A stretch of DNA of 64,000 nucleotides from Escherichia coli (lineage in GTDB: Bacteria; Pseudomonadota; Gammaproteobacteria; Enterobacterales; Enterobacteriaceae): the NCBI RefSeq assembly GCF_024700885.2, contig NZ_CP117016.1, one strand, 5' to 3'. This document shows positions 18,840-37,253 of this stretch, piece by piece; the stretch's first letter is position 1, and every line of letters starts with the position of its first letter. A program made the position numbers and the translations under genes. Under the pieces are notes generated by a model. It was given only the letters and a program-made list of their open reading frames with translations, did no database searches and was not told where the DNA came from.

Positions 18840-21383
18840 ATGAGCAAAGTCAGACTCGCAATTATCGGTAACGGTATGGTCGGCCATCGCTTTATCGAAG
18901 ATCTTCTTGATAAATCTGATGCGGCCAACTTTGATATTACCGTTTTCTGTGAAGAACCGCGCATCGCTTATGACCGCGTACACCTCTCGTCTTACTTCTC
19001 TCACCACACCGCCGAAGAGCTGTCGCTGGTGCGCGAAGGCTTCTACGAGAAACACGGCATCAAAGTTCTGGTCGGCGAACGCGCTATCACCATCAACCGT
19101 CAGGAGAAGGTGATTCACTCCAGCGCCGGGCGCACCGTTTTTTATGACAAGCTGATCATGGCGACCGGTTCCTACCCGTGGATCCCGCCAATCAAAGGTT
19201 CTGATACCCAGGACTGCTTTGTCTATCGCACCATTGAAGACCTCAACGCCATTGAATCCTGCGCCCGTCGCAGCAAACGCGGTGCCGTTGTTGGCGGCGG
19301 CCTGTTAGGTCTGGAAGCCGCTGGCGCGCTGAAAAACTTAGGTATTGAAACCCACGTTATCGAATTTGCCCCTATGCTGATGGCGGAACAGCTTGATCAG
19401 ATGGGCGGCGAGCAGCTGCGTCGCAAAATCGAAAGTATGGGCGTGCGCGTTCACACCAGCAAAAACACCCTTGAGATTGTGCAGGAAGGTGTTGAAGCGC
19501 GTAAAACCATGCGTTTTGCCGACGGCAGCGAACTGGAAGTCGACTTTATCGTCTTCTCTACCGGTATCCGTCCGCGCGATAAGCTGGCAACCCAGTGTGG
19601 TCTGGACGTTGCTCCGCGTGGGGGTATCGTCATAAATGATTCCTGCCAGACTTCCGATCCGGATATCTACGCCATCGGTGAATGCGCAAGCTGGAACAAC
19701 CGTGTATTTGGTCTGGTAGCACCTGGCTACAAAATGGCGCAGGTCGCCGTTGACCATATTCTTGGTAGCGAAAACGCCTTTGAAGGTGCTGACCTTAGCG
19801 CCAAGTTGAAACTGCTGGGCGTAGACGTAGGCGGTATTGGTGATGCGCACGGTCGCACGCCTGGCGCACGTAGCTACGTTTACCTCGACGAAAGCAAAGA
19901 GATCTACAAACGCCTGATTGTCAGCGAAGACAACAAAACCCTGCTCGGTGCGGTACTGGTGGGCGATACCAGCGACTACGGTAACCTGCTGCAACTGGTG
20001 CTGAACGCGATCGAGCTGCCGGAAAACCCGGATTCTCTGATTCTGCCGGCGCACTCTGGTAGCGGTAAGCCGTCTATCGGTGTTGATAAACTGCCGGACA
20101 GCGCGCAAATCTGCTCCTGCTTCGACGTCACCAAAGGCGATCTGATTGCTGCCATCAACAAAGGCTGCCACACCGTTGCGGCGCTGAAAGCTGAAACCAA
20201 AGCGGGTACTGGCTGCGGTGGCTGTATCCCGCTGGTCACTCAGGTACTGAACGCAGAACTGGCGAAACAGGGCATCGAAGTTAACAACAACCTGTGCGAA
20301 CACTTTGCTTATTCGCGTCAGGAACTGTTCCATTTAATCCGCGTTGAAGGCATTAAAACCTTCGAAGAACTGCTGGCGAAACACGGCAAAGGCTACGGTT
20401 GTGAAGTTTGTAAACCGACCGTAGGTTCGCTGCTGGCCTCCTGCTGGAACGAATACATTCTGAAGCCGGAACATACTCCGCTGCAGGATTCAAACGACAA
20501 CTTCCTCGCTAACATCCAGAAAGACGGCACCTACTCGGTGATCCCGCGTTCTCCGGGCGGTGAAATCACCCCGGAAGGGCTGATGGCAGTAGGTCGTATC
20601 GCGCGTGAATTTAATCTCTACACCAAAATCACCGGCTCCCAGCGCCTGGCGATGTTTGGCGCACAGAAAGACGATCTGCCGGAGATCTGGCGTCAGCTGA
20701 TTGAAGCCGGCTTCGAAACCGGTCATGCCTATGCGAAAGCACTGCGTATGGCGAAAACCTGCGTGGGTAGCACCTGGTGCCGCTACGGTGTTGGCGACAG
20801 CGTCGGCCTCGGCGTGGAACTGGAAAACCGCTACAAAGGCATCCGTACGCCGCACAAAATGAAGTTCGGTGTCTCCGGCTGTACCCGTGAATGTTCAGAA
20901 GCTCAGGGTAAAGACGTGGGTATTATCGCCACTGAAAAAGGCTGGAACCTGTATGTTTGCGGTAACGGCGGCATGAAACCGCGTCATGCGGATCTGCTGG
21001 CAGCGGATATCGATCGCGAAACGCTGATCAAATATCTCGACCGCTTCATGATGTTCTACATCCGTACCGCCGACAAACTGACGCGTACCGCGCCGTGGTT
21101 AGAAAACCTTGAAGGCGGCATCGATTACCTGAAAGCGGTGATCATTGACGACAAACTGGGGCTGAACGCACATCTGGAAGAAGAGATGGCGCGCCTGCGT
21201 GAAGCGGTAGTATGTGAGTGGACTGAAACGGTCAATACGCCGTCTGCGCAGACTCGCTTCAAACACTTCATCAACAGCGACAAGCGTGACCCGAACGTGC
21301 AGATGGTGCCAGAGCGCGAACAGCACCGTCCGGCAACGCCGTATGAACGTATCCCGGTAACTCTGGTGGAGGACAACGCATGA
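18840..21383 (+). CDS. nirB: NADH-dependent nitrite reductase large subunit NirB, 847 aa
   Basis: Translation with FAD/NAD Rossmann motifs (IIGNGMVG, VVGGGLLGLEAAG) and sirohaem/Fe-S cysteine cluster; matches remembered NirB. Confidence 0.97.
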   Translation: MSKVRLAIIGNGMVGHRFIEDLLDKSDAANFDITVFCEEPRIAYDRVHLSSYFSHHTAEELSLVREGFYEKHGIKVLVGERAITINRQEKVIHSSAGRTVFYDKLIMATGSYPWIPPIKGSDTQDCFVYRTIEDLNAIESCARRSKRGAVVGGGLLGLEAAGALKNLGIETHVIEFAPMLMAEQLDQMGGEQLRRKIESMGVRVHTSKNTLEIVQEGVEARKTMRFADGSELEVDFIVFSTGIRPRDKLATQCGLDVAPRGGIVINDSCQTSDPDIYAIGECASWNNRVFGLVAPGYKMAQVAVDHILGSENAFEGADLSAKLKLLGVDVGGIGDAHGRTPGARSYVYLDESKEIYKRLIVSEDNKTLLGAVLVGDTSDYGNLLQLVLNAIELPENPDSLILPAHSGSGKPSIGVDKLPDSAQICSCFDVTKGDLIAAINKGCHTVAALKAETKAGTGCGGCIPLVTQVLNAELAKQGIEVNNNLCEHFAYSRQELFHLIRVEGIKTFEELLAKHGKGYGCEVCKPTVGSLLASCWNEYILKPEHTPLQDSNDNFLANIQKDGTYSVIPRSPGGEITPEGLMAVGRIAREFNLYTKITGSQRLAMFGAQKDDLPEIWRQLIEAGFETGHAYAKALRMAKTCVGSTWCRYGVGDSVGLGVELENRYKGIRTPHKMKFGVSGCTRECSEAQGKDVGIIATEKGWNLYVCGNGGMKPRHADLLAADIDRETLIKYLDRFMMFYIRTADKLTRTAPWLENLEGGIDYLKAVIIDDKLGLNAHLEEEMARLREAVVCEWTETVNTPSAQTRFKHFINSDKRDPNVQMVPEREQHRPATPYERIPVTLVEDNA

Positions 21384-21706
21384 GCCAGTGGAAAGACATC
21401 TGCAAAATCGATGACATCCTGCCTGAAACCGGCGTCTGCGCGCTGTTAGGTGACGAGCAGGTAGCAATTTTCCGCCCGTATCACAGCGACCAGGTGTTTG
21501 CGATCAGCAACATCGACCCGTTCTTCGAGTCCAGCGTGCTGTCACGCGGGCTGATTGCGGAACATCAGGGCGAGCTGTGGGTCGCCAGCCCGCTGAAAAA
21601 ACAACGTTTTCGCTTAAGCGACGGCTTGTGCATGGAAGACGAACAGTTTTCCGTCAAGCACTACGAAGCACGTGTGAAAGACGGCGTGGTACAGCTGCGC
21701 GGTTAA
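21380..21706 (+). CDS. nirD: Nitrite reductase small subunit NirD, 108 aa
   Basis: Start overlaps the nirB stop by 4 nt; translation MSQWKDICKIDDILPETGV... matches remembered NirD. Confidence 0.95.
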   Translation: MSQWKDICKIDDILPETGVCALLGDEQVAIFRPYHSDQVFAISNIDPFFESSVLSRGLIAEHQGELWVASPLKKQRFRLSDGLCMEDEQFSVKHYEARVKDGVVQLRG

Positions 21707-21714
21707 TATTTTAA

Positions 21715-21742
21715 CGGGAGGCGCAATGCCTCCCCTTTTTGC
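21715..21742 (+). terminator. Intra-operon hairpin with T-run between nirD and nirC (partial terminator / attenuator)
   Basis: gggaggcgcaatgcctccc followed by cttttt, 9 bp after the nirD stop. Confidence 0.6.
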
Positions 21743-21831
21743 ATGGTCCTGTAATAACCTTCGGTATATTGCAGGACATTTTTTAAACTTTTTGTTTTAT
21801 TTTTTGTTTTTATTTTTTAAAGGATAATCAA

Positions 21832-22638
21832 ATGTTTACAGACACTATTAATAAGTGTGCGGCTAACGCTGCGCGCATTGCACGCCTGTCGGCAAATAAC
21901 CCGCTCGGCTTCTGGGTCAGCTCCGCAATGGCGGGCGCGTATGTGGGTCTTGGGATCATCCTGATTTTCACGCTCGGTAATTTGCTCGATCCGTCCATAC
22001 GTCCGCTGGTGATGGGCGCGACCTTTGGTATCGCCTTAACGCTGGTGATTATCGCCGGTTCTGAACTGTTCACCGGACACACCATGTTCCTCACCTTTGG
22101 GGTGAAAGCGGGCACTATCAGCCACGGGCAAATGTGGGCAATCCTGCCGCAAACCTGGCTGGGTAACCTGGTCGGTTCCGTCTTCGTTGCCATGCTCTAT
22201 AGCTGGGGCGGCGGTAGCCTGCTGCCGGTAGATACCAGCATCGTTCACTCCGTCGCGCTGGCAAAAACCACTGCACCGGCAATGGTACTGTTCTTCAAAG
22301 GTGCATTGTGTAACTGGCTGGTTTGCCTGGCAATCTGGATGGCGCTGCGCACTGAAGGGGCGGCGAAATTTATCGCTATCTGGTGGTGTCTGCTGGCATT
22401 TATCGCGTCCGGCTACGAGCACTCCATCGCTAACATGACGCTGTTCGCCCTCTCCTGGTTTGGCAACCACAGCGAAGCCTACACGCTGGCGGGTATTGGT
22501 CATAACCTGCTGTGGGTGACGCTGGGTAATACTTTATCAGGTGCCGTATTCATGGGATTGGGTTATTGGTATGCTACGCCGAAAGCGAATCGTCCGGTTG
22601 CGGACAAATTTAATCAAACTGAAACAGCTGCCGGTTAA
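21832..22638 (+). CDS. nirC: Nitrite transporter NirC (formate/nitrite transporter family), 268 aa
   Basis: Multi-TM translation MFTDTINKCAANAARIARLSANN...; matches remembered NirC. Confidence 0.95.
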   Translation: MFTDTINKCAANAARIARLSANNPLGFWVSSAMAGAYVGLGIILIFTLGNLLDPSIRPLVMGATFGIALTLVIIAGSELFTGHTMFLTFGVKAGTISHGQMWAILPQTWLGNLVGSVFVAMLYSWGGGSLLPVDTSIVHSVALAKTTAPAMVLFFKGALCNWLVCLAIWMALRTEGAAKFIAIWWCLLAFIASGYEHSIANMTLFALSWFGNHSEAYTLAGIGHNLLWVTLGNTLSGAVFMGLGYWYATPKANRPVADKFNQTETAAG

Positions 22639-37136: not shown

Positions 37137-37253
37137 AGTAAATTTTCAATAAAGTGAATATTTATATCTTCATAAAAATGAAAATAAGTGGCAACTGCGA
37201 GATATGGAAACGGCGAGGCGCTTCACATTTTTTCGGATTATTGCAAAAAGAGG

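Follow-up and report, generated by a model that had tools for sequence, protein, structure and literature searches.

The T-rich tract between nirD and nirC of Escherichia coli, a probable counterpart of the U-rich processing region of the Salmonella operon

Described intercistronic processing regions and the E. coli spacer

The closest system described to date is the nirD-nirC spacer of Salmonella, which was dissected by Wang, Chao, Matera, Gao and Vogel (NAR 2020; PMC7038943) and found to contain an intra-operonic terminator. In that study, the Salmonella nirC 5' ends are monophosphorylated and fall within a U-rich region, no primary nirC end being recovered by 5' RACE; the sole internal promoter of the operon is that of cysG (PMC7038943). 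Upon inactivation of RNase E, for which the same paper quotes the consensus RN|WUU, the nirC-cysG isoform disappears and full-length mRNA accumulates (PMC7038943). Deletion of the stem and U track lowers nirBD, raises nirC-cysG and weakens repression by the small RNA NarS from ~30-fold to ~5-fold (PMC7038943). This deletion took the stem and the terminator-proximal U track jointly, and the T tract on the Shine-Dalgarno side, beyond a REP pair, lay outside it. NarS pairs at -12 to +1 of nirC in Salmonella, as determined by footprinting, and in E. coli this pairing has support from RIL-seq; structure probing in Salmonella also revealed a stem about the ribosome-binding site, formed between -25 to -17 and +12 to +19 (PMC7038943). 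The authors put forward Hfq as the ligand of the uridines; the spacer showed no Hfq-CLIP peak, possibly owing to low expression (PMC7038943). It is in Salmonella only that termination, dependence on RNase E, processing of the 5' ends and a requirement of NarS control for the stem and U track have been demonstrated.

Two further systems, glmUS/GlmZ and iscRSUA/RyhB, resemble nirD-nirC in that an intercistronic RNase E cut splits the mRNA into differently regulated halves and in that an upstream hairpin protects the 5' fragment (PMC7038943). At nirD-nirC, unlike at glmUS and iscRSUA, the protector would be an intrinsic terminator, joined in E. coli by a second hairpin, and cleavage would take place in a long array resembling poly-U.

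The E. coli spacer has much in common with that of Salmonella: a near-identical GC hairpin (GGGAGGCGCAAYGCCTCCC) followed by T runs, a U-rich stretch and the NarS target (AAGGATAATCAA). Unlike Salmonella, however, E. coli carries an extra, Escherichia-specific hairpin that appears to have been inserted in the U track, and its U tract is expanded, repeat-like and variable in length, reaching the Shine-Dalgarno sequence. In S. enterica subsp. enterica, where the spacer is 182 nt long, a REP pair lies between the terminator-proximal U track and another T tract, which adjoins the Shine-Dalgarno sequence (GATTTTTTTTATTTTTTATACTTC-AAGGATAATCAA), an arrangement not shared by E. coli; of these two tracts, it is the terminator-proximal one that had been deleted. 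Judged by position, the E. coli tract appears to correspond to both of the S. enterica subsp. enterica T tracts.

Anatomy of the nirD-nirC spacer

The window, i.e. the whole 64-kb stretch of E. coli DNA analysed here, carries the nirBDC-cysG operon (Table 1). A 351-nt query taken around the tract matches 5,425 of 5,426 complete genomes, always at nirD/nirC. The spacer that holds the tract measures 125 nt, and the arrangement is identical in K-12. RefSeq annotates no RNA or repeat feature between nirD and nirC, and an Rfam scan of the spacer returned no family at the gathering threshold, the best match being sroE (24.3 bits against a threshold of 51); the matches to sroE and IsrM are weak and likely reflect the hairpins and U runs.

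Table 1. Coordinates of features in and around the nirD-nirC spacer, given as positions of the window
Feature	Position	Strand	Basis or remark
nirB	18840-21383		ORF list
nirD, upstream cistron	21380-21706	+	ORF list; RefSeq annotation of matching E. coli records
Hairpin 1, GGGAGGCGCAATGCCTCCC + CTTTTT, predicted intra-operonic intrinsic terminator after nirD	21716-21740	+	Terminator scan, -14.7 kcal/mol
33-codon ORF, MPPLFAWSCNNLRYIAGHFLNFLFYFLFLFFKG	21726-21827		Begins in the hairpin 1 loop, ends in the nirC Shine-Dalgarno sequence
Hairpin 2, GTCCTGTAATAACC-TTCG-GGTATATTGCAGGAC, terminator-like	21746-21777	+	Minimum-free-energy fold, -17.5 kcal/mol
Whole U-rich leader	21779-21819	+	32 T, 6 A, 2 G and 1 C in 41 bases
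T6 run directly 3' of hairpin 2, candidate terminator tail, first run of the tract	21779-21784	+	Sequence, run list
T4-6 runs with a single purine between them, period ~6.5 or 13	21789-21818	+	Tandem Repeats Finder; strain variants
NarS sRNA target, AAAGGATAATCAAAT	21819-21833	+	Perfect 15-nt complement to K-12 narS, b4813
nirC, nitrite transporter	21832-22638	+	ORF list; RefSeq annotation of matching E. coli records
cysG	22657-24030		ORF list

The tract (21779-21819) is the richest in T within the 64 kb on either strand, the runner-up 41-nt windows holding 23 T or 24 A. With A+T at 38 of its 41 positions and only two G, it is A/U-rich, G-poor and located immediately 5' of the Shine-Dalgarno sequence. 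The binomial chance of such a tract, at 23% T, is 1.8e-13 per position, or approximately 2e-8 over the two strands of the window. When the ORFs of at least 200 aa, 48 in all, are compared at positions -53 to -14, the count of T is 32 for nirC, against 20 for the runner-up and a median of 10. The T-rich string quoted in the initial annotation is indeed present (21779-21823) and, as stated there, stands directly 5' of the nirC ribosome-binding site: the tract stops at 21819, the Shine-Dalgarno sequence AAGGA occupies 21820-21824 and the ATG lies at 21832, which leaves a gap of 12 nt between tract and ATG. We also agree that the tract is longer than a simple terminator needs. It does not, however, come straight after the nirD hairpin as had been claimed, since a second hairpin (21746-21777) intervenes, the T6 tail of which is the first run of the tract. 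Both this hairpin and the NarS target that abuts the tract had been missed.

Tandem Repeats Finder reports a period of 13 with 2.4 copies and 94% matches at 21789-21818, together with periods of 6 and 7. Composition-preserving shuffles equalled the best self-match of the tract in 17% of cases at some period and in 3.5% at period 13 alone; periodicity within the single sequence is therefore not clearly beyond what its T-rich composition produces. The description of the tract as near-repeats thus finds no clear backing in one sequence taken by itself (17% of shuffles do as well) but does find it across strains: variants have gained 14-nt or (TTTTTA)n units, and these gains demonstrate the repeat nature of the array.

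Hairpin 1 lies just past the nirD stop codon and consists of a GC-rich stem-loop (21716-21734) followed by the T run of CTTTTT. Hairpin and T run are conserved in Escherichia, Salmonella, Citrobacter, Klebsiella, Enterobacter, Kosakonia, Silvania, Chimaeribacter and others; between genera, compensatory changes affect 3 of the 7 pairs. Hairpin 2 is predicted to form 14 pairs with one bulge and a UUCG loop, after which come an A and then T6. It is confined to the genus Escherichia and is missing in Salmonella and Klebsiella; within the genus, E. albertii and other species retain the outer stem, and the interior differs in E. albertii-like species. Hairpin 2 seems to have been inserted into what was originally the U track of the terminator.

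The short ORF that spans most of the spacer, which we presume to be the one once called nirE, reads the T tract as Phe/Leu. It was rejected as a coding sequence, because its frame is broken in common alleles (it is shifted in the T7 and T8 alleles) and because it is absent in relatives, being truncated in E. albertii and startless in Salmonella. Literature on E. coli nirE, Term-seq or an internal promoter for the nirD-nirC spacer yielded nothing usable.

The NarS target covers the nirC Shine-Dalgarno sequence (AAGGA) and reaches the second base of the start codon; as the 15-nt complement corresponds to 21819-21833, the target begins at the base after the last T run, which it abuts. The pairing was identified by an exact-complement search, folding of the full-length NarS duplex having given meaningless whole-length pairing. 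Six motifs matching the RNase E consensus RN|WUU were found in the tract versus 0.78 expected per 46 nt, a density within the top 0.08% of windows. In the annotated narS region of K-12 (L086, ~195-245, at the 3' end of narK), an ERIC-like segment, CACCCCAGTCACTTACTTTAGTAAGCTCCTGGG, is located upstream of the NarS seed.

Variation among strains and related species

The tract is kept in nearly all of the 5,426 E. coli genomes. A 121-nt query revealed no case of tract loss among the E. coli genomes examined, and 5,365 of the 5,419 matching genomes were at least 95% identical. Identity to the window allele over this query was at least 99% in 3,270 genomes, 95-99% in 2,095 and below 95% in 56, and about 40% of genomes (those below 99%) differ from it by at least two changes. 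Among the length alleles, T6 is replaced by T7 or T8, a 14-nt unit is added in O178:H19, and 24 nt of (TTTTTA)n are added in VG38-53E1; with such whole-unit length differences between strains, the array qualifies as a variable-number tandem repeat. In every sequence fetched, the T7, T8 and +14-nt alleles, noted at 21800-21806, all carry G for A at 21756, a change in the 5' arm of hairpin 2 that converts an A-U pair into G-U. The fact that they share this change suggests that the alleles are inherited rather than being homopolymer sequencing errors, and the length polymorphism among strains points to loose constraint on the tract. The median number of matches per genome was one for both the 351-nt and the 121-nt query. 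A multi-copy repeat element was rejected on this basis, high-identity copies of hairpin 2 or of the tract not being dispersed over the genome.

We fetched nirC loci from 80 species, extracted their spacers and counted leader composition in the 59 species outside Escherichia. A T-rich, A-poor stretch precedes the nirC Shine-Dalgarno sequence in 50 of these 59 species, which are related and hence do not constitute independent samples, and its sequence is not conserved. Their leaders have a median of 21 T and 8 A per 40 nt, T exceeding A in 56 of the 59; the Escherichia leaders are extreme, with 27-31 T in the 40 nt before the Shine-Dalgarno sequence. Conservation of composition and strand asymmetry, but not of sequence, suggests that the tract matters for the transcript or for transcription rather than for the shape of the DNA duplex. 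The bias towards T over A on the sense strand in 56 of 59 species accordingly argues for a role that is exerted at the RNA level or depends on the direction of transcription.

In the shortest of the spacers that keep the terminator (67-69 nt; Klebsiella, Huaxiibacter and Phytobacter), the terminator tail runs T-rich right up to the Shine-Dalgarno sequence. Because this stretch is unbroken there, the E. coli tract looks like the ancestral U track, parted from hairpin 1 by the apparent insertion of hairpin 2. The spacer has repeatedly acquired small repeat elements in its middle part, and its length ranges from 30 to 432 nt (loci L012-L085, e.g. L015 1296-1500, L066, L099 1028-1209). REP pairs occur in Citrobacter and S. 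enterica subsp. enterica, ERIC-like elements in eight species and arrays of CCCTCTCCC/GGGAGAGGG palindromes, in spacers of up to 432 nt, in Cedecea, Buttiauxella and others. The eight species with ERIC-like elements have just 2-5 T in the 40 nt before the Shine-Dalgarno sequence, where they are purine-rich, and their T tract stays by the terminator; adjacency of the T tract to the Shine-Dalgarno sequence is therefore dispensable. In Serratia (L076, L078, L079, L084), the nirD-nirC spacer is 30 nt long and has neither the terminator hairpin nor a long T tract, so the module of terminator and U tract is not universal in Enterobacterales.

Possible roles of the tract

The reading that we favour, and to which we would give about an even chance, is that the tract acts as RNA, forming the single-stranded U-rich part of an intra-operonic terminator and processing module. 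The anatomy of the spacer, its conservation, the density of RNase E motifs and the complementarity to NarS are observed directly in the E. coli sequence; that the Salmonella behaviour holds for the E. coli tract, and which protein binds there, we infer by homology. Hairpin 1 would stop part of the transcription from the nirB promoter; in Escherichia, hairpin 2 probably does so as well, with the first run of the tract serving as its U6 tail. In the read-through nirBDC-cysG mRNA, the long ribosome-free U tract would offer RNase E multiple RN|WUU sites, and cleavage would generate a nirBD mRNA protected at its 3' end by the hairpins and a monophosphorylated nirC-cysG mRNA. The U-rich leader left beside the NarS target and Shine-Dalgarno sequence might then act as a protein landing pad, most likely for Hfq in the annealing of NarS, with S1 or the 30S subunit as the alternative binder; the tract is, in this respect, a candidate Hfq or S1 landing site. 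Such a leader would give nirC a control of its own, apart from that of nirBD and cysG. The repeats would be a by-product of replication slippage, U-richness and single-strandedness being the properties that matter, and not the exact length.

The suggestion in the initial annotation that the tract is an mRNA processing signal is consistent with the orthologous Salmonella spacer, with its monophosphorylated ends and RNase E-dependent isoform; the tests were carried out in Salmonella, and the claim extends to E. coli by homology. The tract is real and, on the same homology, presumably functional at the RNA level; it would also be essentially already known, its orthologue being the terminator and U-rich processing region described within the Salmonella operon. 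Through its spacer, one operon would yield three differently controlled outputs (nirBD, nirC and cysG), and nitrite import would be limited during nitrate respiration. Orthology to the Salmonella U-rich region would explain the tract without invoking a new promoter or DNA-bending element, and the Escherichia-specific hairpin 2 and the expanded, length-variable array would represent refinements of a known mechanism rather than a new kind of system.

Among the other roles conceivable at the RNA level, one that we regard as tentative and unlikely is that of an A/U-rich translational enhancer or ribosome standby site: S1 would bind, the leader would stay unstructured and 30S subunits would load de novo on nirC, the premise being that translational coupling of nirD and nirC is impossible across a structured spacer of 125 nt. 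This role is compatible with termination and processing. It would account for a composition conserved without sequence and for a tract that keeps its place next to the Shine-Dalgarno sequence despite REP and other palindrome inserts upstream; it is further supported by the position and composition of the tract, the nirC leader being the richest in T of the 48 window ORFs. The described S1-bound enhancers (e.g. the U-rich sequence upstream of rnd and the one derived from rrnB boxA) are likewise U-rich, G-poor and directly 5' of the Shine-Dalgarno sequence. The nirC tract is, however, far longer than these and is predicted to occlude the Shine-Dalgarno sequence rather than to expose it: the fold pairs the two, the probability of the Shine-Dalgarno sequence being unpaired amounting to 0.01 with the tract and ~0.8 without it. 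Moreover, a purine-rich leader takes the place of the tract in species with ERIC-like inserts. We find it distinctly unlikely that the first T6 alone is functional, as the terminator tail of hairpin 2, and that the remainder (21789-21818) is neutral, slippage-prone, low-complexity sequence. Hairpin 2 (-17.5 kcal/mol) followed by A and T6, the T6/T7/T8, +14-nt and +24-nt differences, the ~40% of genomes below 99% identity and a periodicity that is not significant beyond composition would all fit such a view; yet neutral intergenic sequence would lose the strand asymmetry seen here, the T-rich, A-poor leader persists across many genera with unrelated upstream inserts, and in none of the E. coli genomes examined was the tract lost.

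The predicted fold also underlies the notion of a weak cis-acting anti-Shine-Dalgarno sequence, according to which the tract would fold on the purine-rich AAAGGAUAAUCAAA in a NarS-like manner and keep nirC translation low until RNase E trims it. The minimum-free-energy fold pairs 21797-21806 with 21818-21827, predicted accessibility increases from 0.01 for a 5' end at or before 21779 to 0.28 at 21800 and 0.78 at 21813, and the stem probed in Salmonella around the ribosome-binding site (-25 to -17 with +12 to +19; PMC7038943) would be in keeping with it. The helix is, however, a prediction, composed of A-U and G-U pairs only (-7.9 kcal/mol), and 12% of tract shuffles fold as well, so that the pairing of tract and Shine-Dalgarno sequence is a compositional property; we consider this role highly improbable. 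Quite improbable, too, is a reading in which the tract, with its variable length, mimics the NarS seed by folding onto the nirC Shine-Dalgarno sequence in unprocessed mRNA, NirC being made only after RNase E trimming. If this were the case, expansion of the repeats between strains (T6 to T8, +14 nt, +24 nt) could tune nitrite import heritably, and the locus would represent a variable-number tandem repeat acting at the RNA level inside an operon. As for DNA-level elements, namely an internal promoter, a UP-like element or curved DNA that would drive or modulate the transcription of nirC, all of which the initial annotation had put forward, we find them hardly credible. An A+T content of 38/41 and a GATAAT hexamer at 21823-21828 speak in their favour, and UP elements and phased A-tract DNA are, like the nirC tract, rich in runs of T or A. 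However, a scan of 21300-22300 detected no sigma-70-like site, and a sigma-70 promoter was rejected because transcription from GATAAT, the only good -10-like hexamer, would start inside nirC, past the ATG. In Salmonella, the nirC ends detected by 5' RACE were likewise all processed and none primary (PMC7038943), and a genomic SELEX list of RpoD-holoenzyme sites names the operon only at cysG/yhfL. With 12 nt between tract and ATG, there is no room for a start ahead of the gene: a core promoter 3' of the tract would begin transcription inside nirC, which excludes the tract as the UP element of a nirC promoter. Nor are the runs helically phased, as the word 'phased' had implied: their centres are spaced by 9.5, 5.5, 6, 6.5 and 6.5 bp, the resultant amounting to 0.21 for a period of 10.5 bp and to 0.69 for one of 6.5 bp, and the repeated spacing of 5.5-6.5 bp is far from the ~10.5 bp (~10-11 bp) of curved DNA, which was rejected on this ground. 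The nirC tract thus differs from UP elements and phased A-tracts in its wrong position for a usable core promoter, its unphased runs and its conserved strand asymmetry, the last of which also stands against a DNA-level role.

Elsewhere in the window, other very AT-rich 41-nt windows (33-37 A+T) are located at ~24229-24269, 37139-37179 and 24090-24130; those at ~24229-24269 and 24090-24130 sit just 3' of cysG.
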